A DNA stretch of 64,000 nt, taken from assembly GCA_965208835.1 (NCBI GenBank), contig OZ242358.1, positions 1,184,001 to 1,248,000 on the forward strand, written 5' to 3'. Numbering within the stretch: the stretch's first letter is position 1; each line of letters starts with the position of its first letter. The position numbers and the translations under genes were made by a program. The notes beneath the pieces are model-generated. The model did no database searches. It saw only the letters and a program-made list of their open reading frames with translations, and had not been told where the DNA came from. Positions 2,492-23,779 of this stretch are shown piece by piece. This stretch comes from Candidatus Latescibacterota bacterium. Lineage in GTDB: Bacteria; Latescibacterota; UBA2968; GCA-2709665.

Positions 2492-2670
2492 GTTTTCGTG
2501 GACGTTAATTCGGATATGTGCGAGTTAATAAAGGCGATTAGACGGCGGATTACCAGGATACACCAGGTCACTGGACGTAAACTGAAAAAACGTCCTTTTG
2601 GTCGACCTCTACGCCCCATTTCAGGGGTTTTTGTGGCGTCGCCGCGTTGCTGTTTTGTTTCGAATTGGGG
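2479..2670. mobile_element. MITE-like repeat family A, copy 1
   Basis: 192 bp, homologous to 6861-7051, 49480-49670 and 54414-54603. Imperfect TIRs CCTTGATTC...GAATTGGGG, flanked by CTAA/CTAA. Confidence 0.85.
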
Positions 2671-2676
2671 CTAACG

Positions 2677-8485: not shown

Positions 8486-8493
8486 CTCCCCGT

Positions 8494-8675
8494 CTACAAA
8501 ACGCGTTCGCGCTGCGCGGCGGCGTCAAGCCCGGATACGATACGGAGGTGTACAGTCTTGGACTGGGATTGAAGGTAAAACCGTGCAGGGCAAGGTGGTT
8601 CGTGTAGATTTCGCTTACAGCGACGGCAACGATTTCGAACCCCCGCTTCGGTTCAGCCTGAGCGGGTCGTTCTGA
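8494..8675 (+). pseudogene. C-terminal remnant of an outer-membrane beta-barrel (PorV/PorQ-like)
   Basis: LQNAFALRGGVKPGYDTEVYSLGLGLKVK, frameshift at AAAA 8577-8580, then TVQGKVVRVDFAYSDGNDFEPPLRFSLSGSF*. Amphipathic strands and terminal Phe; no start or N-terminal part. Confidence 0.55.
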
Positions 8676-8715
8676 CCGGCGCCTGACATCGTCTCATCCT
8701 CTTTAATCAATTCAC

Positions 8716-8748
8716 AAGAAAAACCCCGGTTTTGCCGGGGTTTTTCTT
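8716..8748. terminator. Bidirectional intrinsic terminator
   Basis: AAGAAAAACCCCGG-ttttg-CCGGGGTTTTTCTT perfect inverted repeat with A/T tails. Confidence 0.85.
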
Positions 8749-9322
8749 ATACGTGTTCAATTGCCTTGCGTCGAAAGCCATCCTGAGTTCGCCCTCGGTC
8801 CGCCAGCGTTCGGACGGTGATCAGGGCAGCCGCCGTGATGCGTGAAAGTTGCGACTGTTCGAATGGCGGCGGCTAAGGCCGTTGGCCTGCGTCCGTGGCA
8901 GTCAGGGATGATCACGTCTGGCGTACTGCCCGGTTCAAATCGACACAAAACGCTAAATTTCATCAAAAAATCATCATATAGATGCTCGAATTCAATGATA
9001 GTTCAACGATTTGTCGTTATCTTAAGAATGCCGGGGCACGAAAAGATCGAATCGCGACTTATGAGAAAAAAAGAATTCCTGAAGCGCATTGCACGTATAC
9101 CGCCTCCACGAATGTCGGCTGTTGTTCTCCGCTGCAGGCACACAAATCAACCGGAGTGCGTAACGGAAGGATGTTCAAAGACCGCGTCTTCAATTGGCAT
9201 CACCGGTAGACTACAATTAAGTGAAGGTTCGATCCGACGCTAGAGTACGAGATCTCTGAAGGGGGAAAACCATCCGTAGTCACCTTCGTGAACCCGCAGA
9301 TATCGAAAGGAGAACCGTTATA

Positions 9323-11176
9323 ATGAGATTTCGAACACCGCACGCTTCGGCAACCATGATTGCCGTTGCCGGCCTGCTCGTGCTGGCCTGCGTCTGTACC
9401 AATGCGGCTCCCGCCCTCGCAGCGTGTCCGCTTCCTCCCGGCGTTACGCCTCCTGATAACCCCGGTGTGACGGCGCGACAGGTCGTAGACGGCAGCGCGA
9501 GCCTGGAGGAATTCGCGCTGGCCGCGAGAGATTTCTACAGGAGCGAGTCCCGGGGCCAAGCGACACTTGAACGAGCGGCATACCTCGGATGTCTCACCAG
9601 GCAGGACGATGGAGTCTGGCGTTCCGGTTCCACGTATATCGTGAGCCTGACGCCCGACGGAAGGGTGTTCATTCACGCTAAGGAGATGGCATTATCGGGC
9701 AGGTTGCTTAACCCCTTGGTTTATGGAGCGATCCTTTCTGGCTTGGGCGTATCCTCAGCCGATCTGGCCAACATGGCCTCACCGGACCCTGCTACCGCCG
9801 CCCGGGCATTTGGAGCTGTGATGGGCGTGTTGATGCAAGAGCCGGACGGCCCATTCGATGCGACCACACCTGTTCCTGGCCTGCGACCCGGCATACCAGG
9901 CGCCTCAGGCCATGCAAGCGTCTACTTCTCACTCAATTTCAAGAGCCCGATCGTGATACTCGCCGGTTTCGATCTCAATGAAACTCACGTGACTGAAGAA
10001 GACATCGATTTCGGCGACCCGTCCGTTACCGCCGAGGACGTGGTGGACCGCGGGACTTTGAAGGCCTTCGTCACGGAGGCGATGAATTACTTTCGCGCAG
10101 CCTACGAATCTGGAGGAATAAGTGCTATCTCGAAGGTCAGGACAGCCTTTCGGGATCCGAATGGGCCCTGGAGACACGGTTCGGTGTATCTCTACATCCT
10201 GGATCGCACCAGCAACACAATTCTGCTTCACGGCGCGTTTCCTAATAGATTCGAGCTACAGCCTCTGGTAGCGACTGTTCGCGATGTCGTGAGCGGACAT
10301 CTCGTTCTGCCGCAGGTAATCGAAGCGGCGGCCGGCAGCAGGGAAGGCGGCTTCGTGGAGTATTACTTTGACGACCCCAATGACGAAACCGACAGAGCCG
10401 ACATCCCGAAGGTGGGATACGCACGCGAGTTCACCGGTGAAATCCAACGGCCGGACGGAAGCGTTGTCCCAACTCACTATGTTATTGGGTCAGGTTTCTA
10501 CGGACGCGCTGCCGATGCTGCGACCGGTCCCGGCACGGTCGTGGAGGCCGCGGTGCTGGGCAACGCCGTCGAGGGGCTGGACGTGGCGTTTTCCCGCGCT
10601 ATTGCCGGTCGCCAGTCCGACTACGCCTGGAGTGCCGTCACCGATGCTGCCGGCCTTTTCACCCTGACGATCACCAGCAAGCATGGCGTGAGCGGTTACT
10701 ATCGTGCCCGGGCCACCAAACCCGACGGCGAGGTCGTGGGCCGCTGGAGCAGCATTCCCCTTAATGTCGATCAACGGCAGGTGTTGGAACTGACGTTGGG
10801 CGGCGGCGCTCGAGTTGTGCGGGTCCAGCCGCTGGCGGCATCCAGTCCTGAGGCAGCAGCCAAACCGGCGTTCTCGGCCGAGGCCGTGCCGGAGGCCAGC
10901 GGTCTGTCGCCCAATTCACCCAACCCGTTCAACAGCGCCACGCTGATCACGTACCATTTGTCGAGCCCGGGGCCGGTGACGCTGGTGATCTTCAACGTGC
11001 TGGGTCAGCCCGTAAGGACGCTGGTGGACGAGACCCGCGGGGCGGGCACGTATCATGTCAGGTGGGACGCGCGCGACGACGGCGGCGGCGGCGCGTTGCT
11101 GTCGACCGGGGTGTATATCGCCCGCCTGAACTATCCCGGCGGTGTATCGACGCAACGGCTTCTCTACCTCAAGTAA
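9323..11176 (+). CDS. Secreted tandem-Cache protein with C-terminal T9SS-type/FlgD sorting domain, paralog 1
   Basis: Signal peptide ending ALA; Cache-like motifs WRHGSVYLYILD, HGAFP, GGFVEYYFDDP, PKVGYA, IGSGFY; C-terminal NSPNPFNSAT...IFNVLGQPVRTLVD...WDARDD...GVYIARL. Confidence 0.85.
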   Translation: MRFRTPHASATMIAVAGLLVLACVCTNAAPALAACPLPPGVTPPDNPGVTARQVVDGSASLEEFALAARDFYRSESRGQATLERAAYLGCLTRQDDGVWRSGSTYIVSLTPDGRVFIHAKEMALSGRLLNPLVYGAILSGLGVSSADLANMASPDPATAARAFGAVMGVLMQEPDGPFDATTPVPGLRPGIPGASGHASVYFSLNFKSPIVILAGFDLNETHVTEEDIDFGDPSVTAEDVVDRGTLKAFVTEAMNYFRAAYESGGISAISKVRTAFRDPNGPWRHGSVYLYILDRTSNTILLHGAFPNRFELQPLVATVRDVVSGHLVLPQVIEAAAGSREGGFVEYYFDDPNDETDRADIPKVGYAREFTGEIQRPDGSVVPTHYVIGSGFYGRAADAATGPGTVVEAAVLGNAVEGLDVAFSRAIAGRQSDYAWSAVTDAAGLFTLTITSKHGVSGYYRARATKPDGEVVGRWSSIPLNVDQRQVLELTLGGGARVVRVQPLAASSPEAAAKPAFSAEAVPEASGLSPNSPNPFNSATLITYHLSSPGPVTLVIFNVLGQPVRTLVDETRGAGTYHVRWDARDDGGGGALLSTGVYIARLNYPGGVSTQRLLYLK

Positions 11177-11270
11177 CGCGAGAGCAAATTTAAAACTGCT
11201 TCTCAGAAAGAGGACAACCGTCCCACGTCACCCTGGTGAACCCGTTTTTCCTGGAAGGAGAATCGCTGAG

Positions 11271-13118
11271 ATGAAGATTCGAACATTGTTCACGTCGGCA
11301 TCCATGATTCCTGTTGTCGGGCTGCTCGCGCTGGCCAGCGTGCTTTCCACCGCACACCATGCAGAGGCGCAGGATCCTTGCCCGCTTCCTCCCGGTGTGA
11401 CTGCCCCGCCGGACCCGGCTGTGACGGCGCAACAGGTGGAAGAAGGCAGCGCCAGCCTGACCGAATTCGGACTGTCCACGAGAGACGCGTTCAGGAATCG
11501 CAGCCATGCGGAAGCGGTAACGAGCTTCGGGCAAATATCCTACTTCGGATGTCTCGTCAGGCGGGAGAACGGGCCGTGGCGCTCCGGTTCCACTTACGTC
11601 GTGATGTTGACGCCCAACGGCAGGGTGTTACTTCACTCGAAGGAAATGGCATTATCGGGCGGGCTGCTCAATCCCGCCATTTACGGAGCAATCCTCGCTT
11701 CGTTGGGCGTGTCCCTGTCGGATCTTGCCAATCTGGCGTCCCCGGATCCTGCTACCGCCGCCCAGGCGTTCGGCGCGGTCATGGCAGTTTTGTCGCAGGA
11801 ACCGGACGGCGTATTCGATGCGACCATCTCGATTCCGGGACGAACGCCAGGCATTCCGGGCGCCTCCGGCCATGCCAGCGCCTATGTCTCGGGCAGTGTA
11901 CGGCAGCCGTTCATCCTGCTCACCGGATTCGATCTCCAACGAATTCACCTGGCGCAGGAAGAGATCGACTACGGAGACCCGGCCGTTACGGCCATGGACG
12001 TGATGGACCGCGAATCCCTGAAGGCTTTCGTCAACGAAGCAGGACGGTACTGTATCGGACTCCAGGGGAGAGACGATATTGACAGAGCCAAGATTGCTCT
12101 GCGGGATCCCAACGGGCCCTGGAGACACGGTTCGGTGTACCTCTACGTCCTGGACCTTGTTTCGAACATCATCCTGATTCACGGCGCGTTTCCGGACAGA
12201 TTCGAGCTTAGACCCCTGACACCGACCGTCAAGGACGTCGTTACCGGAGAGTTCGTTCTGCCGCAGGTCCTCGAAGCAGCGAGGAGCAACCCGGAAGGCG
12301 GCTTCGTAGAGTATTACTTCGACGATCCCAATGACGACTCCGACAGCGCGGATATCCCAAAGGTCGGCTACGCCCGACAGTTCACAACTGAACTCGATAT
12401 TGGCGGACGGGTCATACCTCTCAATTTCATCATCGGATCGGGTTTTTATGGGCGTGCGGCCGATGTCGTGACGGGTCCCAGTACGGTCGTGGAGGCCACG
12501 GTGCTGGGTGATGCTGTGGAGGGGCTGGACGTTGAATTTTCCCGCGCTATCGCCGGTCGCCGGCCCGACTACGCCTGGAGTACCGTCACCGATGCTGCCG
12601 GCCTTCTAACGTTGACAATCTCCAGCCCGGATGGTGTGAGCGGTTACTACCGGGCCCGTGCCACGAACGCCGATGGCGACGTTATGGGCCGGTGGAGCAG
12701 CATTCCGCTCAATGTCAATCAACGGCAGGTTCTGGAATTGACACTGGGCGGCGGTGCGAGGGTCGTTCGTGTGCAACAGCTGGCTACAGACGCGCCGGTG
12801 GCTGCCGCCAAGCCTTCGTTCGCGGCAGAGGCCGTGCCGGTGGCCAGCGGACTTTCGCCAAATTCGCCGAACCCGTTCAACAGCGCCACGCTGATCACGT
12901 ACCACCTGGCCAGCCCGGGTCCGGCAAAGCTGGTGATCTACAATGTGCTGGGCCAGCCCGTACGGACGCTGGTGGATGAGGCCGGTGGGGCGGGCACCTA
13001 TCATGTGAGGTGGGACGCGCGCGACGACGGCGGCGCGTTGCTGTCGACGGGGGTGTATATCGCACGGCTGAGCTATCCCGGTGGGGTGCATACACAGCGA
13101 CTGCTGTACCTGAAATAG
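11271..13118 (+). CDS. Secreted tandem-Cache protein, paralog 2
   Basis: Same architecture; ATG 11271 after GAAGGAG aligns with the other paralog starts. Confidence 0.85.
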   Translation: MKIRTLFTSASMIPVVGLLALASVLSTAHHAEAQDPCPLPPGVTAPPDPAVTAQQVEEGSASLTEFGLSTRDAFRNRSHAEAVTSFGQISYFGCLVRRENGPWRSGSTYVVMLTPNGRVLLHSKEMALSGGLLNPAIYGAILASLGVSLSDLANLASPDPATAAQAFGAVMAVLSQEPDGVFDATISIPGRTPGIPGASGHASAYVSGSVRQPFILLTGFDLQRIHLAQEEIDYGDPAVTAMDVMDRESLKAFVNEAGRYCIGLQGRDDIDRAKIALRDPNGPWRHGSVYLYVLDLVSNIILIHGAFPDRFELRPLTPTVKDVVTGEFVLPQVLEAARSNPEGGFVEYYFDDPNDDSDSADIPKVGYARQFTTELDIGGRVIPLNFIIGSGFYGRAADVVTGPSTVVEATVLGDAVEGLDVEFSRAIAGRRPDYAWSTVTDAAGLLTLTISSPDGVSGYYRARATNADGDVMGRWSSIPLNVNQRQVLELTLGGGARVVRVQQLATDAPVAAAKPSFAAEAVPVASGLSPNSPNPFNSATLITYHLASPGPAKLVIYNVLGQPVRTLVDEAGGAGTYHVRWDARDDGGALLSTGVYIARLSYPGGVHTQRLLYLK

Positions 13119-13151
13119 CGTCGAACGGTTGGATAGATTGCCTTATCCCGG

Positions 13152-13218
13152 AGAACCCGTTTGGAATTGCCCCATTCAGCCTTTAGTTCGAGGCGTGCGG
13201 GGATTTCAGACGGGTTCT
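13152..13218 (+). repeat. Conserved ~66-bp hairpin after paralog 2 (probable terminator/3' RNA element)
   Basis: AGAACCCGT...ACGGGTTCT followed by a T-run; 33 bp after the stop. Confidence 0.75.
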
Positions 13219-13423
13219 TTTTTCGTGGCGGACACTCACTGAAAAAGCCTGATAACCAACAGGACCTGCTTGACCACGGTTTCCTTTGCGTGCGCTGAAC
13301 ACGGATGCTGTCGTGCGACCGCATTGCGAATTTCCAGATTGGGGTGCCGGATCCAGGAACTTCCGGCGGTCAGTTTGGCAACATCGGTACAATTCAGGAA
13401 GTATCGTAGACGGTATTTTTCGA

Positions 13424-13452
13424 TTGCATGACGGATGGAATGGTCTTAACAT
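13424..13452 (+). promoter_or_regulatory. Sigma70-type promoter of paralog 3
   Basis: TTGCAT-N17-TAACAT; same arrangement before paralogs 4-6. Confidence 0.7.
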
Positions 13453-13558
13453 GCGCGTCTGCAAGATTCGGTCCGTAGCGACAGTCTCATTTCTCAGAGC
13501 GAGGACAACCAGCCGCATTCACGCTAGAGAGCTTGTCTTTACGTGAGGGAGAACCGTC

Positions 13559-15403
13559 ATGACGAAAGTTCGAACACTGTTCACTTCGGCATCCATTATT
13601 CCTGTTGTCAGCCTGTTGGTACTGGCCGCCGTCTCTGCCCAGGCGCCTCCCGCCCTGGCATATTGTCCACCCCCACCCGGCGTGACTACCCCCGAGGAAC
13701 CGAGCGTGACGGCGCAGCAGGTGGAAGACGGAAGCGCAAGCCTGAAGGACTTCGCGCTGGCCTCGAGGGAACGATTTGTTATGCAGATCCAGACGGCTGA
13801 GAATCTGGGACAAGTGGTATACTATGGATGTCTCTTCCGGCAAGAGGGGAGCTTTTGGCATTCCGGTTCCACCTACCTCGTGATTCTGAGGGCCGATGGC
13901 AGTATTCTGATTCACGCGAAGAACATGGCATTGGCGAGCAGACGACTCAACCCCCTTGTCTATGCAGAGATCCTTTCTTCGTTGGGATTACCCTCAACCG
14001 TTCTGGGCAACCTGGCATCTCCCGATTCTGCTGTTGCCGCCCAGGCTAGTGCCGATGTCTTTGATATGTTGTCGCAAGGACCGGATGCCGCATTCGATGC
14101 GACCACCCCTATACCAGGCCTGCGACCCGGCATACCGGGTGCCTCCGGCTATGCCGCCGCATATTGGTCGGACTTCTTTAGAGGCCCGCTTGTGATGGTA
14201 GCCGGTTTCGAACTCGATGATACTCACCTGATTGAAGAAGAGATCGATCACATTACACCGGCCGTTTCCGCCAGGGACGTGGTGGATCGAGAAACCCTGA
14301 AGGCCTTCGTCACGGAGGCCGGGGAGTACTGTCTCGAACTTAGGAAAACCGGCAATTTCCCCGGTGGGATAGCCAGGATCGCCCTGCGGGATCCGAACGG
14401 GCCCTGGAGACACGGTTCCGTGTACCTCTATGTCTTGGATACGACCAGCAACATAATCCAGATACACGCTGCGTTTCCGAACAGATACGAGCTTCGACCT
14501 CTGATAGCCACCGTCCGGGACGCGGTTACCGGAAAACTCATACTTCCGCAGGTCATCGAAGCGGCGAAGAGTGACCCGGAGGGCGGCTTCGTGGAGTATT
14601 ACTTTGACGATCCCAATGACGACACCGACAGTGCCGATATCCCCAAGGTGGGATACGCACGCGAGTTCAAGACGAAAACCGAGTTAGGTGGAAGGGTAGT
14701 CCCATACAACTTCATTATCGGGTCGGGTTTTTATGGGCGCGCGCCCGAAGTCGCGACGGGTCCCAGAACGGTCGTGGAGGCCACGGTGCTGGGCGATGCG
14801 GTGGAAGGGCTGGACGTCGAGTTTTCCCGCGCCATCGCCGGCCGCGTTTCCAACTACGCGTGGAGTGCCGTCACCGATGCTGCAGGCCTTCTGTCGCTGA
14901 CCATCTCCGGCGCGGATGGCGTGAGCGGTTACTATCGAGCCCGCGCCACGAACGTGGATGGTGAGGTCGTCGGTCAGTGGAGCAGCATTCCTCTGAACGA
15001 AGGCCACCGACAGACCCTGGAACTAACGCTGGGCGGGGGCGCGAGGGTCGTACGGGTCACGTCGCTGGATGCGGCAGAGCCGGTGGCTGCCGCCAAGCCG
15101 GTTTTCGAAGCTGAGACTGTGCCGGAAGCCAGCGGTCTTTCACCTAATTCGCCCAATCCATTCAACAGCGCCACCGTGATCACCTACCACCTGTCCAGCG
15201 CGGGCCCGGTGCAACTGGTGATCTACAATGTGCTGGGTCAGCCCGTACGGACGCTCATGGACGAGTCCAGCGCGGCGGGCACTTATAAGGTCAGGTGGGA
15301 CGCACGTGACGAGTTTGGCGTCTCTCTGTCGACGGGAGTCTATATCGCACGCCTGAGCTATCCCGGTGGTGCGCAGACTCAGCGGCTGCTGTACCTCAAA
15401 TAG
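13559..15403 (+). CDS. Secreted tandem-Cache protein, paralog 3
   Basis: Same architecture, intact 614 aa. Confidence 0.85.
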   Translation: MTKVRTLFTSASIIPVVSLLVLAAVSAQAPPALAYCPPPPGVTTPEEPSVTAQQVEDGSASLKDFALASRERFVMQIQTAENLGQVVYYGCLFRQEGSFWHSGSTYLVILRADGSILIHAKNMALASRRLNPLVYAEILSSLGLPSTVLGNLASPDSAVAAQASADVFDMLSQGPDAAFDATTPIPGLRPGIPGASGYAAAYWSDFFRGPLVMVAGFELDDTHLIEEEIDHITPAVSARDVVDRETLKAFVTEAGEYCLELRKTGNFPGGIARIALRDPNGPWRHGSVYLYVLDTTSNIIQIHAAFPNRYELRPLIATVRDAVTGKLILPQVIEAAKSDPEGGFVEYYFDDPNDDTDSADIPKVGYAREFKTKTELGGRVVPYNFIIGSGFYGRAPEVATGPRTVVEATVLGDAVEGLDVEFSRAIAGRVSNYAWSAVTDAAGLLSLTISGADGVSGYYRARATNVDGEVVGQWSSIPLNEGHRQTLELTLGGGARVVRVTSLDAAEPVAAAKPVFEAETVPEASGLSPNSPNPFNSATVITYHLSSAGPVQLVIYNVLGQPVRTLMDESSAAGTYKVRWDARDEFGVSLSTGVYIARLSYPGGAQTQRLLYLK

Positions 15404-15435
15404 CGCCAGAAGGTCAGGCGGGAAACCCTCTCCTT

Positions 15436-15501
15436 AGAACCCGTCCGGAAACACCCGATAGGCCTTGATTTCAAGGCCATAGGGGTTCTCAGACGGGTTC
15501 T
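15436..15501 (+). repeat. Conserved hairpin after paralog 3
   Basis: AGAACCCGT...GGCCTTGA-tt-TCAAGGCC...ACGGGTTCT; 32 bp after the stop. Confidence 0.75.
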
Positions 15502-15629
15502 ATTCGAATCAACCGAAGACCTGCTCCGGTCCAGAATACGACATAAGTAACAGGCAATCAACACGTTAAAGAAATCGTGGCCCGACGAGAAGGCAATAAT
15601 AACAAGGCGATCGTCGGCGGTTTTTTTAT

Positions 15630-15658
15630 TTGCATGCCGGGCAGAATTCCTTTAACAT
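15630..15658 (+). promoter_or_regulatory. Sigma70-type promoter of paralog 4
   Basis: TTGCAT-N17-TAACAT. Confidence 0.7.
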
Positions 15659-15763
15659 GCCAACTTGGGCGCACGGTCCGAAGCGTTTACCCGATATCTC
15701 AAAAAGAGGACAACCAGTAGTTGCCACGTCAGTGAGCGATTTTTCTCGAGAGGGAGATCCGTT

Positions 15764-17572
15764 ATGAAGAAAGCTCGAACACCGTTAATATCGGCATCCA
15801 TAATTCCTGTTGTCAGCCTCTTGGCGCTCGTCGCCGTCTTTGCCAACGCGGGTTCCTCCGTTGCTCAGGATCGGGGAGAATGCGTACTCCCTGAAGGCGT
15901 GACCCCTCCGGCGGACCCAAGCGTGACCGCGCAACAGGTGGAAGACGGAAGCGCTACCTTGAAAGAATTCGGGTTGGAAGCAAGAAATCGATTCAGTCAA
16001 GGGGCAGGTTCTCGTGAACTGCAACTGTACGTCGGTTGCGTCCTGCGGCAAGAGGGGAGCCATTTGAACTCCGGTTCCACATATCTTGTGCAATTGACGC
16101 CTGATGGAAGGGTGTTTATTCACGCGAAAAATATGGCGCTGTCGGGAAGGTTGCTCAATCGCCTGATTTATGGAACTATTCTTCGAGCATTGGAAATCGA
16201 TTTGGCTGGATTGCAGGACGATCCTGCCGCGTTAACGGCTGCCTTCATTGAGGCTGCAGGCAGGGATGGCGGCGAGTTCAACATGCCTGCTATCCCAGGG
16301 GCTTCAGGCTATGCCGCTGTCTACTTTTCGAGAAATTTCAGACTCCCTATTGTGTTGCTTGCCGGATTCGACCTCAACGAGTCCCACCTGGTCGAAGAGG
16401 AAATCGACTATGGTATTCCCGCCGTTACTGCAAGTGAAGTGGTGGACAGGTAAACTCTAAAAGCCTTTGTTACCCAGGCAGGGGAGGCTTTTCTCAATCA
16501 GCAGAAGGGAGGCGACCTGTCCGCGACCTCGAAGGCCAGAGTGGCCTTGAGAGACCCGAATGGGCCCTGGAGACACGGTTCCGTATACCTCTATGTCCTG
16601 GATCTAACAAGCAACATCATCCTGTTCCACGGCGCGTTTCCTGACCTGTACGAACTGCGGCCTCTGATAGCGACCGTCCGGGACGTGGTTACCGGAGAGC
16701 TTGTTTTGCCGCAGGTCATCGAGGCGGCGAAAAGCAGCCCGGATGGCGGCTTCGTGGAGTATTACTTTGACGATCCCACTGACGACACGGACAGCGCAGA
16801 TATCCCCAAAGTGGGTTATGCCCGTCAGTTTACCGGTCAACGCGAGAGAGAAGACGGGACTGTACTTCCTATAAATTTCATCGTCGGGTCAGGATTTTAC
16901 GGACGCGCGCCCGATGTTGTCGCAACGGGTCCCAGTACGGTCGTTGAGGCCACGGTACTGGGGGACGCGGTGGAGGGACTGGACGTCGAGTTTTCCCGCG
17001 CCATCGCCGGACGTCAGTCCGAGTACGCGTGGAGCGCCGTCACCGATGCTGCCGGCATTCTGTCGCTGACCATCTCCAGTGCGGATGGGGTGAGCGGTTA
17101 CTATCGTGCCCGGGCCACCAATGCCGATGGCGAGGTCGTGGGCCGGTGGAGCAGTATACCTCTGACCGAAGGCCGCCGCCAGGCCCTGGAACTGACGCTG
17201 GGCGGGGGCGCGAAGGTCGTACGGGTCGCGTCGCTGTCTGCGGCGGAGCTGGTGGCTGCCGCCAAGCCGGTTTTCGAAGCTGAGACTGTGCCGGAAGCCA
17301 GCGGTCTTTCACCTAATTCGCCCAATCCATTCAACAGCGCCACCGTGATCGCCTACCACCTGTCCAGCGAGGGTCCGGTGCAACTGGTGATCTATAATGT
17401 GCTGGGTCAGCCCGTACGGACGCTGGTGGATGAGACCCGCGGGGCGGGCAGGTATCAAGTCAAGTGGGACGCGCGCGACGACGGTGGCGCGTTGCTGTCA
17501 ACCGGAGTGTATATTGCCCGCCTGAGCTATCCTGGCGGCGTGCAGACGCAACGGCTGCTCTACCTGAAATAG
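15764..17572 (+). pseudogene. Secreted tandem-Cache protein, paralog 4, with in-frame nonsense codon
   Basis: VVDR-TAA(16451-16453)-TLKAFVTQAG continues in the same frame; most paralogs have VxDRE, so GAA>TAA. Confidence 0.85.
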
Positions 17573-17604
17573 CGCCAGTCATCGAAGCAGAACGTGATAG
17601 TTTG

Positions 17605-17671
17605 AGAACCCGTTTGGAAACGCCCCATATAGCCTTGAGTACGAGGCTTGCGGTGTTTACGGACGGGTTCT
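17605..17671 (+). repeat. Conserved hairpin after paralog 4
   Basis: AGAACCCGT...ACGGGTTCT; 32 bp after the stop. Confidence 0.75.
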
Positions 17672-17805
17672 TCCTTTTGGGGTGTGAAGGCGGACGATCG
17701 TACCGAAAACCTTTAGTTGCGGCAACGGGTCAAGGGCCGCCAGGCGGTCATGCCGTCCCGATCGTGGACAAAGACGCAAAGACGCAAGGGATCGTGACAT
17801 TTTCG

Positions 17806-17834
17806 TTGCATAAAGAGTCGAACCCACTTAATTT
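17806..17834 (+). promoter_or_regulatory. Sigma70-type promoter of paralog 5
   Basis: TTGCAT-N17-TAATTT. Confidence 0.65.
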
Positions 17835-17938
17835 ACACATTCGTGCGATTCGGTCCCAGGCGACAGCCTCATATCACAGAGAGGGTAGGCAGCCGCAGAT
17901 ACGCTACTGAGCCCGGCTCTCCAGGAGGGAGAACCGTC

Positions 17939-19789
17939 ATGAAGGAAATTCGAACATCGTCCACTTCGGCATCCATAATTCCTGTTGTCGGCCTGCTGAT
18001 GCTGGCCGGCGTCTTTTTCGATCCGGGTCCCGCCGCGGCACAGGGGCTGGGAGATTGCGTACTCCCTGAAGGCGCGAATCCACCCACTGAACCGCATACG
18101 ACGGCGCAGGACGTTGAGAACGGCAGCGCAACCCTGAAGGACTTCGCGCTGGCCGCGAGAGATCAGTTCAAGGTGGGATCTCCAACTCCGGAAGAAGCGT
18201 TCTACTTCGGATGTCTCGTCAGGCAGGAGGGGAGCCATTGGCGTTCCGGTTCCACCTACATCGTGTCAATGCTGGCCGACGGAAGGGTGTTCGTTCACGC
18301 AAAGGATATGGCACTGTCGGGCAGGCTGCTCAACCCTGTAATATACGGAACGATCCTCGCCGCGCTGGGCGTATCTCCAGGCGATCTGGCCAATTTGGCT
18401 TCTCCGGATCCCGCTGTCGCCGCCCAGGCTTTCGGCGCCGTCATGGGCACATTGATGCAGGAACCGGATGGCGCATTCGATGCGACCGCCCCGATTCCAG
18501 GTCTGTCGCCCGGTATACCGGGCGCCTCCGGCTATGCCGCCGTATATTTATCGGGCAATTTCGCGCTTCCGGTTGTAATGCTCGTCGGATTTGACATCAA
18601 TGAAACTCACTTGGCTAAAGAAGACATCGATTACGGCGCCCCTGCCGTCGCCGCCGAGGACGTGGTGGACCGGGAATCCCTGAAGGCCTTCGTCACGCAA
18701 GCGGGAGAATTCATCCTCGAACTCCAGAAGACCGGCGATCTGGCCGCTTCCTCGAAACTCAGGATCGCCCTGCGGGACGCGGACGGACCCTGGAGACACG
18801 GTTCCGTTTACCTTTACGTCCTGGACCTTACCAGCAACATCATCCTGTTCCACGGCGCGTTTCCGGACAGATTCGAGCTGCGGCCTCTTGTCGCGACCGT
18901 CAAGGACGCGGTTACCGGTCAGCTCGTTCTGCCGCAGGTCATCGAGGCGGCGAAGAGCAGCCCGGAAGGCGGCTTCGTGGAGTATTATTTCGACGATCCC
19001 ACCGACGACACGGACAGTGCCGATATTCCCAAGGTGGGCTACGCCCGCGAGTACCACGGGGAATTTGACACAGGCCAACGCATACTCAGACTCAACTTCA
19101 TTGTCGGTTCAGGATTCTACGGGCGCCCGGCCGATGTCGGGACAGGTCCCAGCACGGTCGTGGATGCTACGGTGCTGGGCGACGCGGTGGAGGGGCTGGA
19201 CGTAGACTTTTCTCGCGCCATCGCCGGGCGCCAGTCCGAATACGCGTGGAGTGCGGTCACCGATGCTGCCGGCCTGTTCACCCTGACGATCTCGGGTGAA
19301 AATGACGTGACCGGTTACTACCGGGCCCGGGCCACGAACGCCGACGGAGAGGTCGTGGCCCGGTGGAGCAGCATACCTCTGAATGAGGGCAGGCGCCAGG
19401 TTCTCGAACTGACGCTGGGCGGAGGTGCGAGGGTCGTACGGGTCCGAGAGCTGACTACCGCCGAGCCGGTGGCTGCTGCCAAACCGGTTTTCGAAGCCGA
19501 GACCGTGCCGGAAGCCAGTGGTCTGTCGCCGAATTCGCCCAACCCGTTCAACAGCGCCACCGTGATCACTTACCGTATTTCCAGCGCGGGTCCCGTGAAA
19601 CTGGTGATCTACAATGTCCTGGGTCAGCCTGTACGGACGCTGGTGGATGAGTCCCGCGGGGCGGGCAGCTATCAGGTCAGGTGGGATGCGAAAGACGACG
19701 GTGGCGCGACGCTGTCGACCGGGGTGTATATCGCCCACCTGAGCTATCCCGGCGGTGCGCAGAACCAGCGACTGCTGTATCTCAAATAA
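17939..19789 (+). CDS. Secreted tandem-Cache protein, paralog 5
   Basis: ATG 17939 after GGAGGGAGAACCGTC; intact. Its TAA stop is formed at the repeat B1 insertion junction. Confidence 0.85.
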   Translation: MKEIRTSSTSASIIPVVGLLMLAGVFFDPGPAAAQGLGDCVLPEGANPPTEPHTTAQDVENGSATLKDFALAARDQFKVGSPTPEEAFYFGCLVRQEGSHWRSGSTYIVSMLADGRVFVHAKDMALSGRLLNPVIYGTILAALGVSPGDLANLASPDPAVAAQAFGAVMGTLMQEPDGAFDATAPIPGLSPGIPGASGYAAVYLSGNFALPVVMLVGFDINETHLAKEDIDYGAPAVAAEDVVDRESLKAFVTQAGEFILELQKTGDLAASSKLRIALRDADGPWRHGSVYLYVLDLTSNIILFHGAFPDRFELRPLVATVKDAVTGQLVLPQVIEAAKSSPEGGFVEYYFDDPTDDTDSADIPKVGYAREYHGEFDTGQRILRLNFIVGSGFYGRPADVGTGPSTVVDATVLGDAVEGLDVDFSRAIAGRQSEYAWSAVTDAAGLFTLTISGENDVTGYYRARATNADGEVVARWSSIPLNEGRRQVLELTLGGGARVVRVRELTTAEPVAAAKPVFEAETVPEASGLSPNSPNPFNSATVITYRISSAGPVKLVIYNVLGQPVRTLVDESRGAGSYQVRWDAKDDGGATLSTGVYIAHLSYPGGAQNQRLLYLK

Positions 19790-19943
19790 TGTCCTGTCCC
19801 AAAAATATCTCACCATTCGGTCGCCGATTCATCCCGTCTCGCTGCGTTGCCTTCGCTCGCCGACCTTACGCAGGTCGGTGGCGCCTTGCGAGCCGGGCGA
19901 CTCGACGGCCGAATTCAGGCAACCTATTTCTGGGACAGAACAG
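19789..19943 (+). mobile_element. MITE-like repeat family B, copy 1
   Basis: 155 bp, TIRs ATGTCCTGTCCC...GGGACAGAACAG, TA duplicated (19787-88 and 19944-45). Homologous to 36802-36963 and 45667-45828. Confidence 0.88.
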
Positions 19944-19978
19944 TAGCGCCACACGGTAAGGCAGGAAGGGTTTTTCTG

Positions 19979-20044
19979 AGAACCCGTCCGGAAACACCCG
20001 AATAGCGTTGAACACGAGGGTTGCGGGTTCTTCGGGCGGGTTCT
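19979..20044 (+). repeat. Conserved hairpin after paralog 5
   Basis: AGAACCCGTCCG...CGGGCGGGTTCT; 32 bp after the displaced TAG at 19944-19946. Confidence 0.75.
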
Positions 20045-20169
20045 CTTCGATTCAACCGAATACCTCCGTCGGCTCAGGACACTAGGTAGGACGTATTCAA
20101 CACGCAGAAGAAAGCCCCGCCCGAATTGAAGGCATTGATTGCAAACTGATCGCAGAAAGTCTTTTTAAT

Positions 20170-20198
20170 TTGCATAACCGGTGAATTTTAATTAATAT
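20170..20198 (+). promoter_or_regulatory. Sigma70-type promoter of paralog 6
   Basis: TTGCAT-N17-TAATAT. Confidence 0.7.
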
Positions 20199-20304
20199 CC
20201 CCGTTCGTATGATCGGTCCCGGGCGGTGGGCCGATGTTTCAGAGAGAAGAAAATCAGCCGTGGTCGCCGTTGCGGCCTTGTCTTTAACGGGAGGGAGAAC
20301 TGAT

Positions 20305-22169
20305 ATGATAAAGTTTCGAACACTGTTCGCGCAGGCAAACGTGAATCCGGTTGTCGGTCTGCTCGTTCTGGCCGTCGTCTTGTCATTCGTACGTCCGGCC
20401 GTGGCAGTTTGTCCGCTTCCCCCGGGCGTGACGGCCCCCGACGACCCCGCTGTGACCGCGCAGCAGGTGGTAGACGGCAGCGCCACCCTCAAGGAGTTTT
20501 CTCTGGCAGTAAGAGAGCGGTCCAGAGAATACGCCAAGGGGGCCGCGGCCACGGAACAAGCCGTATATATCGGATGCATCATAAGGCTGGACGATGGGAT
20601 CTGGCGTTCGGGTTCCACCTACATCGTGAGCCTGACGCCTGACGGCAGGATATACATTCACGCGAAGGACATGTCGTTGACGGGCAGGTTGCTAAACCCG
20701 GTGGTTTATGGAGCGATCCTTTCAGCGCTGGGCGTATCCCTATCTGATCTGGCGAATCTGGCGTCTCCCGATCCTGCGACTGCCGCACAGGCTTTCGGCG
20801 CTGTCATGGGCACATTGGCGCAGGAACCTGACGGCGCGTTCGATGCGACCGGTCCTGTTCCGGGTCTATCGCCAGGTATACCGGGCGCTTCGGGCCATGC
20901 CGCCGTCTATATCGAGCCCAATGTAGGGGGGGCTCCGATTGTAATGCTCATGGGTTTCGATCTCAATGAATCTCACCTGGTCCCATTAGCGATGAAGTCA
21001 TCGATTACGGCGACCCGGCCGTCACTGCCAGGGACGTGGTGGATCGCGAATCCCTGAAGGCCTTTGTTACCCAGGCTGGAAATTACTTTCTTGAACTTCA
21101 GAATTCCGGGGATTTCGCCGCTATTGCGAAAGCCAGGATCGCCTTGCGGGATCCGAACGGCCCGTGGAGACACGGTTCCGTGTACCTCTACGTTCTGGAT
21201 CTTGTCAGCAACATCATCATATTTCACGCGGCGTTCCCTGACAGATACGAGTATCGTCCTCTGATACCGACCGTCACCGACGCCGTGACAGGCGAGTTCA
21301 TCCTGCCGCAGGTCATCGAGGCGGCGAAGGGCAGCCCTGATGGCGGCTTCGTGGAGTATTACTTCGACGATCCCACCGACGACACCGACAGCGCCGATAT
21401 CCCCAAGGTGGGATACGCCCGTGAGTTTGCCGCTGAAATTCGGCGGCCGGACGGAAGCACAATCCCGGCCGACTTCATCGTCGGTTCGGGCTTCTACGGG
21501 CGCGCGGGCGAGGTTGCCACGACGGATCCCAGCACGGTCGTGGAGGCCACCGTGCAGGGTGACGCGGTAGAGGGGTTGGACGTGGCATTTTCCCGCGCCA
21601 TTGCCGGGCGCGGGTCCGATTATGCCTGGAGCGCCGTCACCGATCCTGCCGGCCTGTTCTCCCTGACCATCTCCAGCGCGGATGGCGTGAGTGGTTACTT
21701 TCGGGCCCGGGCCACCAACGCCGATGGCGAGGTCGTGGGCCGTTGGAGCAGCATACCCCTGAATGAAGGCCGCCGCCAGGTTCTGGAACTGACGTTGGGC
21801 GGCAACGCACGGGTCGTAGGTGTCGAAGCCCTGGCCTCATCCAGGTCTGAGGCCGCCGCCAAGCCGGCGTTTGCGGTCGAGGCCGTGCCGGAAGCCAGCG
21901 GTCTGGCGCCCAATTCGCCGAACCCATTCAACAGCGCCACGCTGATCACCTACCATCTGTCCGGCGCGGGTCCTGTGAAGCTGGTGATCTACAATGTGTT
22001 GGGCCAGCCCGTACGGACGCTTGTGGATGAGTCCCGTGCGGCGGGCACGTATAAGGTCAAATGGGATGCGCGCGACGAGGGTGGCGCGTTACTGTCGACA
22101 GGTGTGTATATCGCCCATCTGAGCTATCCCGGCGGTGTGCAGTCGCAACGGCTGCTGTACCTCAAGTAG
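20305..22169 (+). pseudogene. Secreted tandem-Cache protein, paralog 6, frameshifted (or sequencing error)
   Basis: ORFs 20209-21057 and 21036-22169 join if one base is added at GTCCCATT (20980-20987), restoring HLVPISDEVIDYGDPAVTARDVVDRES. Confidence 0.8.
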
Positions 22170-22200
22170 CACCAGAGGGAAGGCAGCAAGCGATATCCTG

Positions 22201-22266
22201 AGAACCCGTTCGGAATCACCCCGTGAGCCATGCGCCCTGGGCTTGCACGGATTTCGAACGGGTTCT
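22201..22266 (+). repeat. Conserved hairpin after paralog 6
   Basis: AGAACCCGTTCGGAATC...GATTTCGAACGGGTTCT followed by TTTT; 31 bp after the stop. Confidence 0.75.
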
Positions 22267-22349
22267 TTTTGCGTTGGGCCCGGTATCTTCTGACTCCCCG
22301 GCTTGACCGTCTGTGTTCCATTTCGAAACCCGCGAGTACGGGTTTGAGC

Positions 22350-22377
22350 TTGACTTCCGGCCGTTGGGTCGTAATAT
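22350..22377 (+). promoter_or_regulatory. Possible sigma70 promoter
   Basis: TTGACT-N16-TAATAT, ~300 bp upstream of the C45 gene at 22676. Confidence 0.4.
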
Positions 22378-22675
22378 TGGCCTTGCGGATGAGGGCTCCG
22401 GCCTGCGGGTTTTTTCACGTCGCTGCGGGTTCCCTGGCTGGTTCTACACCATTCCGAAGGTCTGGCAGATTCAGGTTACAAGCGTGCGAGGCGATGACGG
22501 AGGAATCAGCAAACATATAGATTCTGCACCGAAATCGGTTGGTTGTTCTCCACAGATTTTCGTCGAATGCACGCAGTACGGACGGCAGCCTCAGGGGGCT
22601 GCCGTTTCTGTTCAGGTACGCATTGTCCGACGGGTCTGATTCCTGAAATTGCCTTAGGTATTCGAGGAGATTTCA

Positions 22676-23779
22676 TTGGGCGAACCCGTGGTATTGCTTC
22701 GTGAAGGACCGTTGAAATTCCACGTGTTCAGGGGAAGCTCCGTCGAGATGGGCCGGGCTCATGGTTCTCTTGACCCGGAGTTTCTCCGATCGCGGCTGGA
22801 CGAATGGCTGACGTGGCCTCACGATTTCGATCACCCGTATTTTCGGAAGAACATGGCGTTCATGCGGCGCGAGTTTCCGGATTTCATCGAACGCATGGAA
22901 GCTTACGGCGCGGCGGCGGGTATCGACAACTTCGATCACACCTACTATCTGCACATGGTCGACACCGGCCGAGAGCAAGAAGCATGTTCCGCGTTCGGAA
23001 TCCTGCTGAGCGACGATGGGCCGGCCCTGCTGCGAACCTACGACCCTTCTGATTCCACCGGGACGAGCTACTTTGTCAGGGATCGCTTCGTGGCGGCGTT
23101 TCCGGATTGCCGCCCGCACGGATACCTCGGCATGGGCGGGCATCACTTCTGTGTCGTACATACCTCAGTCAACGACGCCGGCCTGCTTACGGGATGGGCT
23201 TCGGGGGCGCCGAAATTCCATTGGCCCGACAACCCGGAACACGTCAATCTCTTTCAGATCACCGGACTCGTGCCACAGCATTGCGGTGACTGCGAGGACG
23301 TGAGGCGGTTTCTCAACGAATACCGGATTTCCGGGCTGAAAGGGCTGACCGGCACGTCCGTGGACGCCAGGGGTAACATACTCGGTATCGAACTGGAATC
23401 TGAGAATATCGCATTTCGCGAACCCGAAAATGACATGGTACTGGAGGTGAACCACTGGCAGCATCCCGACCTCCAGCGCCTGGCACGGAAGAGAAAACCG
23501 GAATTCTGGACGAGCCCCTATTACTACAATTCACAGAACCGCGTGCAGTACGTGGAATACCACCGGGACAGGTTCCTGCGGATGTCCACACTCGAAGAGC
23601 TGATTGACTTTACGTTCGACGTGCACGCTCCCGGTCGAATCCTGCAGATGCCGGACGCCAACATTGCCAACTGGATGACCTCGCATGCGATCTATATGAC
23701 TGCCGCCGACCGGAGAATGCGGGTACACCCGTATCCGCTTGATAAAGACAGATACACCGAAGTCGCATATCTCGGTTGA
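22676..23779 (+). CDS. C45 family Ntn-hydrolase/amidase
   Basis: GSSVEMGRAHG, A|CSAFG, SVNDAGL, VNHW; TTG start after GAGGAG. Confidence 0.7.
   Translation: MGEPVVLLREGPLKFHVFRGSSVEMGRAHGSLDPEFLRSRLDEWLTWPHDFDHPYFRKNMAFMRREFPDFIERMEAYGAAAGIDNFDHTYYLHMVDTGREQEACSAFGILLSDDGPALLRTYDPSDSTGTSYFVRDRFVAAFPDCRPHGYLGMGGHHFCVVHTSVNDAGLLTGWASGAPKFHWPDNPEHVNLFQITGLVPQHCGDCEDVRRFLNEYRISGLKGLTGTSVDARGNILGIELESENIAFREPENDMVLEVNHWQHPDLQRLARKRKPEFWTSPYYYNSQNRVQYVEYHRDRFLRMSTLEELIDFTFDVHAPGRILQMPDANIANWMTSHAIYMTAADRRMRVHPYPLDKDRYTEVAYLG

Follow-up and report, generated by a model that had tools for sequence, protein, structure and literature searches.

Lineage-specific loop segments in a tandem array of Cache-like paralogs with T9SS sorting domains in a Latescibacterota bacterium

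Six tandem paralogs, two of them broken

The window analysed here is a stretch of 64,000 nucleotides from contig OZ242358.1 of a Candidatus Latescibacterota bacterium (contig positions 1,184,001 to 1,248,000). Between positions 9323 and 22169 of this window, the list of open reading frames (ORFs) holds six paralogs in tandem, here termed g1 to g6, and all genes and features described below lie on the forward (+) strand. Four of the six copies (g1, g2, g3 and g5) are intact. Specifically, g1 (9323..11176; 617 aa) and g3 (13559..15403; 614 aa) were delimited from their ORFs and from Pfam and TIGR04183 matches, and for g3 also from a structural model of its N-terminal part (mc3ed4a9ae4e0). The other two intact copies were taken from the ORF list: g2 (11271..13118) encodes 615 aa when counted from the Met that precedes the signal peptide, ahead of which its ORF starts at 11142, and g5 (17939..19789; ORF start at 17843) encodes 616 aa. 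The g2 and g5 sequences are clusters P0079 and P0075 respectively.

The g4 paralog (15764..17572, from ORF and alignment) carries an in-frame TAA at 16451..16453, directly 5′ of TLKAFV, at a codon that specifies Glu in four copies and Gly in g1. Contigs from runs X1 and X5 span this TAA with 0 differences. The helical insert of module 1 in g4 is shorter by approximately 16 residues. The g6 paralog (20305..22169) is split into two ORFs (20209-21057 and 21036-22169) by a frame change at 20978..20986 (near 20981-20985), after the His-Leu-Val of module 1. In related strains (runs X6 and X10), an extra T behind position 20980 places the two g6 halves in one frame; its depth is 368.3/578.3 in X6, 24.5/86.1 in X10, and 0 in X1 and X5. 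With two of its six copies broken, the array is in part decaying. The pooled dS between the six copies is 0.76.

Protein architecture and predicted export

Each copy corresponds to a protein of approximately 615 aa. A Sec signal peptide precedes two sCache_2-like modules, which are followed by a β-rich spacer and then by a T9SS type A sorting domain. In g1, Cache-like module 1 extends from 9425 to 9976, sCache_2-like module 2 from 10058 to 10507, the β-rich spacer from 10508 to 10825 and the T9SS CTD from 10898 to 11173. The N-terminal segment, read from the sequence, is hydrophobic and signal-like, and ends in Ala-x-Ala in several copies. Pfam matches are to dCache_2/sCache_2, FlgD_ig and Por_Secre_tail. 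For dCache_2 (PF08269), g3 scores 30.7 bits, above the cut-off of 26.5, and g1 (23.7 bits) and g5 (20.8 bits) fall below it; for sCache_2 (PF17200), g3 reaches 17.3 bits against a cut-off of 25. Longer relatives clear the Cache cut-offs of Pfam (P0046 with 106 bits, P0147 with 301.7 bits).

The sorting domain forms the end of the protein, with no sequence beyond it. Its TIGR04183 score is 35.1 bits in g1 and 35.8 bits in g3 (cut-off 23), and a scan of the genome found this cut-off exceeded by all six copies, which make up 6 of the 24 sorting-domain frames in the genome. We searched the genome for the T9SS components SprA, PorU and PorV. SprA lies above its cut-off of 200: its main piece scores 485 bits, and 631.5 bits are reached when a neighbouring in-frame piece is included; the best PorU-like match (220 bits, cut-off 420) and the best PorV-like match (104 bits, cut-off 250) lie below theirs. 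Because the signal peptide is combined with a T9SS type A sorting domain, the Cache modules are most likely displayed at the cell surface or released, as predicted from these sequence features.

The combination of a signal peptide with a TIGR04183 domain is shared with Bacteroidota T9SS type A cargo such as enzymes and adhesins, and the SprA translocon is likewise encoded in the genome that carries the array. The passenger differs, being of a Cache-type fold that binds small molecules, and our literature search found no paper that pairs a Cache-type passenger with a T9SS sorting domain. The host organism also differs from Bacteroidota, the names of related proteins pointing to Gemmatimonadota. 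Pfam analysis of the 614-648 aa proteins returned Cache, FlgD_ig and sorting-domain matches, and neither an output domain nor a TM receptor layout. In distant relatives the Cache unit stands on other anchors, namely autotransporter β-domains (P0147 and P0137), an OMP barrel (P0221) and LRRs (P0022).

Two Cache-like modules

The AlphaFold model of g3 residues 34-424 (pLDDT 88.3, pTM 0.83) predicts two successive modules, each composed of a helix-loop-helix and five strands. In module 2, helices 211-230 and 238-244 are followed by the five strands, so that it has the N-terminal helix-loop-helix and the five-stranded antiparallel PAS-like sheet by which the sCache_2 fold is recognized. Its VIA matches include 2QHK (Z 13.2, rmsd 2.7 over 131), 4K08 (Z 12.7) and 5G4Y (Z 12.6), and the alignments to these three sCache_2 structures cover 130-133 residues. 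A sequence search of the PDB gave no match at E ≤ 1. The order of elements in module 1 is the same as in module 2, and hhalign aligns the two modules with a probability of 82.6% (E 9.7e-6). The two Cache-like modules arose through internal duplication. When module 1 was folded alone, which gave a mediocre model (pLDDT 72.4, six-row alignment), nearly all of its top structural matches were Cache/PDC sensors (Z 7.8-5.5).

Module 2 shares its fold with the sCache_2 domains of the chemoreceptors PscD (PscD-SD, 5G4Y/5G4Z), Adeh_3718 (4K08) and TlpB (3UB6) and with the Vibrio parahaemolyticus MCP domain 2QHK/4EXO, at Z 11-13. An extracytoplasmic location, predicted for the array proteins, would be a further common trait. 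The chemoreceptors possess TM helices and a signalling domain, whereas the array proteins have neither, carry two consecutive modules ahead of their spacer and T9SS sorting domain, are encoded by multi-copy tandem genes, and are too dissimilar for a PDB sequence match. The dCache domains (PctA/B/C, Mlp24, Tlp3) resemble the array proteins in having two PAS-like modules per extracytoplasmic unit, and dCache structures match the model at Z 9-10.5. In dCache domains a single long stalk helix spans both modules. By contrast, the modelled array modules each have their own helix-loop-helix, one after another, and the structures that match best are single-Cache domains, which align with one module only.

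In a 55-row family alignment, the module 2 residues Y256 and H270 show no variation and Y314 reaches at least 90% conservation. According to the published account of PscD, its Tyr90, His103 and Tyr143 hydrogen-bond the ligand carboxylate (PMC5062169). The offsets between the module 2 Tyr, His and Tyr match those between these PscD residues and fit the aligned ranges (209-361 and 40-178), an equivalence of residue offsets between aligned ranges and not a residue-level superposition. At these putative equivalents of the carboxylate-binding positions of solved sCache_2 domains, module 2 appears invariant in all copies.

Four variable segments on a conserved framework

The initial annotation described a near-invariant framework interrupted by four hypervariable segments, V1 to V4. 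V1 lies at the helix-loop-helix junction of module 1 (9533..9580 in g1, 11487..11540 in g2, 13772..13819 in g3, 15989..16027 in g4, 18164..18202 in g5 and 20518..20565 in g6) and comprises residues 39-54 of the g3 model, with helices 29-46 and 50-61 on either side. V2 forms the last β-hairpin turn of the same module (9926..9946, 11886..11906, 14165..14185, 16325..16345, 18548..18568 and 20911..20934 in g1 to g6), at model residues 170-176 between strands 163-171 and 176-182; it is short and only weakly distinct. At the helix-loop-helix junction of module 2 is V3 (10073..10141, 12033..12092, 14312..14377, 16472..16540, 18695..18763 and 21069..21137), residues 219-240 of the model, between helices 211-230 and 238-244. 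V4 is the tip of the long last β-hairpin of module 2 (10427..10474, 12378..12422, 14663..14707, 16826..16873, 19049..19093 and 21423..21470), residues 336-350 between strands 325-343 and 346-359. The pLDDT of the g3 model is lower at the V segments, in blocks of 71-84.

In the six-copy alignment, conservation along the mature protein is lowest at V1-V4. A scan made blind to their positions, with a threshold of <0.35 on identity smoothed over 9 columns, recovered all four as low-identity columns 76-91 (V1), 212-215 (V2), 270-281 (V3) and 384-391 (V4), and also flagged the end of the signal peptide and isolated single columns. The number of low-identity windows was 42, shuffled alignments gave 0.61 on average, and 0 of 2000 column shuffles gave as many as 42. 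The proposed equivalence of V1 with V3 is borne out by the hhalign alignment of the two modules, in which the V1 and V3 stretches coincide; likewise, in the AlphaFold model, V2 and V4 each form the turn within the final pair of strands of their module.

Every V1 and V2 string quoted in that annotation was located. Of the blocks it listed as nearly identical, RDPNGPWRHGSVYLY is the same in five of the six copies (g5 has RDADGPW) and the block from GGFVEYYFDDP to KVGYAR fits all six. The Cys pair (CxxPxG, YxGC) is present in 6/6 copies and at least 90% conserved across 55 family rows. To call the framework near-invariant was an overstatement, with 275 of 589 mature columns (47%) invariant and a mean column identity of 0.68.

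Selection within and between paralog lineages

Every paralog has orthologues in other genomes that retain its V1-V4, and in the g3 clade (15 proteins from different genomes) these segments are almost invariant. Among 28 sequences in six orthogroups, amino acid identity in V is 0.84 within and 0.29 between orthogroups, and in the framework 0.89 within and 0.68 between. The V types are discrete, forming 20 clusters in 101 family members, and V identity is 0.31-0.39 where framework identity is <0.80 and 0.79-0.98 where it is ≥0.85. Columns fixed within orthogroups and differing between them make up 18/66 of the V columns (27%) and 18/303 of the others (6%), which fits the expectation for specificity determinants. 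By the NG86 method, ω in V is 0.27 within orthogroups and 0.57 between them, where V dS is near saturation (pS 0.62).

A two-ratio codon likelihood analysis of 43 sequences gave a V ω of 0.31 on shallow (within-orthogroup) and 1.00 on deep (inter-paralog) branches, and a framework ω of 0.16 and 0.29, respectively; these values come from a custom script that rescales the branch lengths of a nucleotide tree, may be biased by recombination, and for V are based on codon alignments that contain indels. Equal shallow and deep ratios are rejected for V (2ΔlnL 60.3, p 8e-15), as is a shallow ω of 1 (2ΔlnL 99.7, p 1.8e-23), whereas a deep ω of 1 is not rejected (p 0.96). Segment by segment, ω is 0.17-0.70 on shallow and 0.90-1.33 on deep branches, and none is significantly >1. 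The deep value of 1.00 fits relaxed constraint and adaptive remodelling equally well.

One explanation for this pattern is that V1-V4 are the least constrained surface loops, which have drifted with indels since the duplications and confer no specificity, the paralogs being redundant or different elsewhere. A deep ω that does not exceed 1 agrees with this account, as do the loop, junction and hairpin-tip positions with their reduced pLDDT, the length differences inside the segments, and a shallow ω about twice that of the framework. Broken copies would also be expected if copies are dispensable, and the g6 lineage has been broken independently in another genome. However, V is constrained within orthogroups, lineage-fixed columns are enriched in V, and many genomes keep the same head types. 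Furthermore, the ratio of deep to shallow ω is 3.2× in V and 1.8× in the framework, so that rates have changed and were not uniformly lax. We judge drift rather unlikely as the explanation of V1-V4.

The initial annotation instead took the segments for one antibody-like binding surface under diversifying selection, as might be driven by phage, the host or competitors in an arms race. Variability does cluster strongly, at four elements that are equivalent between the two modules, which is compatible with this proposal, and the proteins are probably surface-exposed, judging by their predicted export. Codons in classes with ω ≥ 1 comprise 49/66 of those in V and 66/303 of the others. M2a fits better than M1a (2ΔlnL 11.8, p 0.003), so a few sites may be under positive selection; the site model places 1.4% of codons at ω 2.2. 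Just two sites have P(ω>1) > 0.8, one of them inside a V segment (1/66 V codons; P 0.85, in V1). Against an arms race, a dN excess is absent from every V segment, V1-V4 hardly vary over the 15 g3-type proteins, and the V types are discrete. V also holds 4 of the 28 best-supported variant positions of the g3 head (14%) against 17% of the bases, a count from the best 40 of 635 rows and from contigs, not reads. Antibody-like diversification thus did not hold up and is improbable here. The site-wise dN/dS check that the annotation had called for showed no dN excess, the outcome named there as counting against its proposal, although the segments are not evolving neutrally today.

Antibody CDRs and the variable proteins of diversity-generating retroelements (DGRs) resemble the array in having a conserved scaffold with few variable patches, but the array lacks ongoing diversification within lineages, its genome yields no reverse transcriptase match, and its variation lies between old gene copies and is not made within one gene. 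Targeted hypermutation of V by a DGR or similar cassette mechanism, which has this superficial pattern alone in its favour, can be set aside, as the V patches are not C-terminal and are conserved in orthologues; there were no reverse transcriptase (PF00078) matches in the single-contig genome (97.8% complete), where control genomes gave matches, and none among the scanned window ORFs, and the array holds no near-identical template repeat, its repeat copies being 62-87% alike.

Heads and tails have separate histories

When the proteins were divided into halves, the nearest neighbour belonged to the same orthogroup for 27/28 N-terminal halves and for 11/28 C-terminal halves. Each half rejects the tree of the other (ΔlnL 3132 and 1377; p-AU 8e-90 and 4e-60). 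The Cache heads and the C-terminal tails of spacer and sorting domain have separate evolutionary histories. Moreover, the heads of g3, g1 and g6 differ from their orthologues in a second family (f2) by a dS of 0.21-0.54, far below the divergence of two reference genes, RecD2 and URO-D, which are saturated against the same f2 genomes (pS 0.78-0.84). This comparison, made with these two genes only, suggests that Cache heads have been exchanged horizontally between the two bacterial families.

Discussion

On balance, we consider it probable that the array provides a discrete set of Cache binding proteins displayed at the surface, with loops that were remodelled once the copies had duplicated and have been retained since. 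Six old tandem paralogs would encode an exported, putative binding protein without a signalling output domain. V1-V4 were remodelled, at a near-neutral rate and with indels, as the paralog lineages diverged from one another, and each lineage has since kept them under purifying selection. Segments remodelled and then conserved in this manner imply that the array encodes a small, discrete set of heads and not a continuously diversifying one. We infer that the heads differ in the partner bound, or in how a shared pocket is presented. If the Tyr/His/Tyr assignment is right, the core pocket chemistry would be common to all copies, and V3 and V4, together with neighbouring lineage-specific positions, may tune specificity.

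A more tentative possibility is that the Cache heads are exchangeable cassettes on resident tails of spacer and T9SS domain, moved between families to give each genome its own set of specificities, with no signalling. Such heads could capture extracellular small molecules or recognize host or matrix ligands, and relatives would mount them on autotransporter barrels in place of T9SS tails.

The paralogous dCache receptors PctA/B/C, in which a common scaffold serves different ligand ranges, are comparable. Paralogs that combine a conserved scaffold with variable patches are not by themselves a sign of antibody-like selection. Among the extracellular sensors of bacterial signalling proteins, Cache domains are the most common. 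In the family described here, the Cache fold is predicted to be a secretion-system passenger without signalling output, present in multi-copy arrays with lineage-specific loops. The low synonymous divergence between families, together with the mosaic of heads and tails, suggests a trade in binding specificities among lineages. Should the ligands differ from head to head, the array proteins would form a new class of binding proteins at the cell surface, and would provide a natural set of scaffold-plus-loop variants for decoding Cache specificity.

Array organization and broken copies

The six paralogous genes are arranged head to tail on the + strand. Four are intact, namely g1 (9323-11176), g2 (11271-13118), g3 (13559-15403) and g5 (17939-19789), and two are broken, g4 (15764-17572) and g6 (20305-22169). 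The g4 reading frame ends early at an in-frame TAA (16451-16453). This stop occupies the codon preceding TLKAFV, which specifies Glu in four copies and Gly in g1. The g6 frame changes directly past His-Leu-Val, near 20981-20985 (site 20978-20986). Contigs from two sequencing runs of different studies (X1 and X5) span both lesions with zero differences. In related strains from two other runs (X6 and X10), an extra T behind 20980 places both halves of g6 in one frame. Variation within populations was viewed through assembled contigs, in which rare variants drop out, and through 40 of 635 variant rows. A g6-type gene in another genome (G006, locus L057, about 10070-10110) has lost its frame at the same position through a different change that runs the opposite way, which rules out a programmed frameshift in g6 and indicates that the two genes decayed independently. 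Inactivation is recurrent in the family, as further matches that carry stops or are split occur in four other genomes (G007, G028, G040 and G025).

The source genome is a single 5.18-Mb contig whose full-length family copies are confined to this cluster; its remaining matches cover the C-terminal part only or are to a remote Cache domain. Related genomes also carry tandem arrays of the family, which comprises 1392 proteins at E<=0.001 among 8000 candidates scored (438 representatives after clustering at 50% identity). Where the source names family members, they are Gemmatimonadota T9SS proteins. In run X10, which is labelled as a sponge metagenome, 722 contigs match parts of 9300-22200, many of them 90-99% alike and 80 at >=99%, and close relatives therefore occur in such samples.

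Protein architecture

Pfam yields weak dCache_2/sCache_2 matches at residues ~270-390 and FlgD_ig/Por_Secre_tail at the C-terminal end, where the NCBIfam T9SS type A sorting domain scores 35.1 and 35.8 bits (cut-off 23). An AlphaFold2 model of g3 residues 34-424, made from a 55-row alignment (pLDDT 88.3, pTM 0.83), has two modules that both begin with a helix-loop-helix and continue with five strands. Module 2 (model residues 207-366) resembles solved sCache_2 domains, with Z scores of 13.2 for 2QHK (rmsd 2.7, 131 aligned), 12.7 for 4K08 and 12.6 for 5G4Y. Module 1 aligns to module 2 and represents a diverged copy of it (hhalign probability 82.6%, E 9.7e-6); when modelled alone (pLDDT 72.4), its matches are almost all Cache/PDC sensor domains at middling Z scores of 7.8-5.5. 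The ESM Atlas again returned Cache relatives (scores 0.89-0.91). Sequence searches of the PDB gave 0 matches at E<=1 with the family profile, and just two chance-level matches to unrelated enzymes (E 1.4 and 1.7) with the module 2 profile.

The fold of these proteins is thus the same as that of sCache_2 sensors. Cache receptors, however, have a membrane anchor and an output domain, and the g1-g6 proteins are not receptors in this sense, as they have no transmembrane or signalling domain. By their sorting domain they belong instead with T9SS cargo. The genome encodes SprA above the cut-off, PorU-like and PorV-like matches beneath the cut-offs, and a sorting domain in 24 frames. In the limited literature collection searched, we found no paper on Cache domains with type IX secretion, and none on Gemmatimonadota together with sponge and T9SS.

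Distant relatives combine the same Cache unit with an autotransporter beta-domain (P0147 and P0137), an OMP barrel (P0221) or adjoining LRRs (P0022). Some relatives (P0121, P0122, P0124 and P0147) carry three to seven Cache units in polypeptides of 1270-2142 aa; P0147, which has seven sCache_2 stretches, ends in its autotransporter beta-domain.

Four variable segments at equivalent positions

The initial annotation had described four variable segments, V1-V4, set in a near-invariant framework and occupying equivalent positions in the two modules. A blind scan of the six-copy alignment found the lowest identity at columns 76-91, 212-215, 270-281 and 384-391, which correspond to V1-V4, and also flagged the end of the signal peptide and isolated single columns. 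There were 42 low-identity windows where column shuffles gave an expectation of 0.61, and none of 2000 shuffles reached 42. Placed on the model by secondary-structure position, V1 (residues 39-54) and V3 (219-240) are predicted to lie where the two N-terminal helices meet in modules 1 and 2, respectively, and V2 (170-176) and V4 (336-350) at the turn of the final hairpin in the same two modules; the hhalign alignment of the modules sets V1 directly over V3. The segments and their equivalent placement are therefore borne out. 'Near-invariant' is too strong a term for the framework, in which fewer than half of the mature columns (47%) are invariant, with a mean identity of 0.68 and a pooled dS of 0.76 between copies. 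These values point to conserved blocks kept by purifying selection rather than by recent duplication.

Selection on the variable segments

The comparison set added 37 full-length frames taken from 17 loci in related genomes. Two other frames were passed over, as were shorter, broken ones. In the tree of N-terminal halves the sequences form clean orthogroups, each being one paralog lineage across genomes. Within the g3 clade, V1-V4 are almost invariant among 15 proteins whose identity to g3 is 84-93%. Six orthogroups comprising 28 of the 43 sequences (the other 15 belong to none of them and were set aside) show a V identity of 0.84 within versus 0.29 between orthogroups, compared with 0.89 versus 0.68 for the framework. 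The NG86 omega of V is 0.27 inside orthogroups and 0.57 across them, with dS saturating. Columns fixed within but differing between orthogroups make up 18/66 in V versus 18/303 elsewhere. Across 101 family members, V identity rises from 0.31-0.39 to 0.79-0.98 above a framework identity of about 0.85, and there are 20 V types.

Codon likelihoods were obtained with our own script, using a GY-type model with F3x4 frequencies and rescaled branch lengths of the nucleotide tree. Overall omega is 0.64 for V, 0.23 for the framework and 0.19 for the C-terminal half. In a two-ratio model, where shallow branches are those inside eight orthogroups (32 sequences) and deep branches are all others, omega for V is 0.31 on shallow and 1.00 on deep branches. 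Equality of the two is rejected (p 8e-15), as is omega = 1 on shallow branches (2dlnL 99.7); omega = 1 on deep branches is not rejected (p 0.96). Corresponding framework values are 0.16 and 0.29. V1-V4 changed fast on the branches that separate paralog lineages and have been held since, which is the pattern of paralogs with diverged specificity, or of moderately constrained loops.

The variable segments had also been proposed to be under diversifying selection, like antibody loops. Site-wise analysis is partly favourable to this proposal, as model M2a fits better than M1a (2dlnL 11.8, p 0.003), but the class with omega 2.24 holds only 1.4% of codons, and just one of the two sites with P >0.8 is in V (V1). 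Classes with omega>=1 take up 49 of the 66 V codons versus 66 of 303 others. In no single V segment is deep omega significantly >1, the highest value being that of V2 (1.33, p 0.36). The low shallow omega, the deep omega of 1.00 and the discrete V types do not fit the pattern of continuing, antibody-like diversification. No reverse transcriptase match was present in the genome, and no near-identical template repeats were found. The original observation of variability is good, but the inference of selection drawn from it is not supported.

Mosaic histories of the gene halves

The double-Cache N-terminal half (head) and the C-terminal half of beta-rich spacer and sorting domain (tail) have different histories. 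The nearest neighbour lies in the same orthogroup for 27/28 N-terminal versus 11/28 C-terminal halves, and in the same genome for 6/28 C-terminal halves. Each half rejects the topology of the other (dlnL 3132 and 1377, p-AU 8e-90 and 4e-60). Exchange of the tail therefore accounts for part of the 'framework' likeness of the six copies; judged from these trees, the tail behaves as an exchangeable cassette. The tail (10508-11173 in g1, with equivalents in all copies) is also 55-56% identical to two unrelated shorter cargo genes of the source genome (L008 and L009 in G000).

Heads may also have moved between bacterial families. The g3 head (13664-14740) has a dS of 0.21-0.27 versus same-genus orthologues and of 0.21-0.23 versus three genomes of a second family (loci L047, L048 and L055); head dS versus genomes of that family is 0.35 for g1 and 0.47-0.54 for g6. 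RecD2 and URO-D, which served as the two reference genes from the window, share 93-96% identity among genomes of the genus (dS 0.23-0.40) and are saturated versus the same second-family genomes (pS 0.78-0.84; identity 67% and 81-82%). Similarity to the second family is restricted to coding sequence, within the genus it extends through intergenic DNA, and the flanking genes of the window adjoin arrays only in same-genus loci. This comparison with two reference genes suggests that heads were exchanged horizontally between families fairly recently, with unusual synonymous constraint as an alternative.

Regulatory DNA, repeats and neighbouring genes

A conserved inverted repeat, GAGAACCCGT ... ACGGGTTCT, lies directly past the stops of g2 (region 13133-13230), g3 (15404-15500), g4 (17573-17670) and g5 (19944-20040, beyond an inserted element), and looks like a putative terminator. 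Conserved blocks (TTGCAT..TTAA, TCTCAGAAAGAGGACAACC, and GGAGA ahead of the start) precede each gene, so the unit that was duplicated carries regulatory DNA of its own. The element inserted between g5 and g6 (19790-19942) is a palindrome of ~155 nt with terminal inverted repeats and a long hairpin (-37.8 kcal/mol, z -4.3). Because it is palindromic and has at least 40 further genome copies (81-93% identity), we regard it as MITE/REP-like, which accounts for the depth spike and for the many loose ends that the sequencing runs show at 19790 and 19942. An Rfam scan of 8400-23000 gave zero matches at gathering scores.

Neighbours in the window encode phosphoesterases, an SDR, a PQQ-type propeller, a ceramidase-like protein, a cyclase and an RND efflux pump, and their annotations show no functional link to the array. 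An ORF directly 3' of the array (22676-23779), without a Pfam match at E<=1e-5, is kept beside the arrays of several genomes of the genus, with 87% identity in G002 and G010. Another ORF (2647-3750) matches the acyl-CoA:6-aminopenicillanic-acid acyltransferase family.

Proposed function

The proteins would be exported by Sec, after which the invariant Cys pair probably forms a disulfide, and the sorting domain would direct them through the T9SS to the cell surface. PMC5062169 places the carboxylate ligand of PscD in a pocket built from strand 1, two short helices and strands 2-4, where Tyr90, His103 and Tyr143 hydrogen-bond to it. Judged by offset in the aligned ranges, the counterparts of these residues in the model would be Y256, H270 and Y314, which are invariant or nearly so in 55 family rows, and this conservation suggests that the canonical pocket of module 2 would be common to all paralogs. 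V3 and V4, and V1 and V2 in module 1, appear to fall outside the elements that the paper names for the PscD pocket. The V segments may tune access or specificity, or make a separate contact surface. The theme common to the family and its distant relatives would be display outside the cell.
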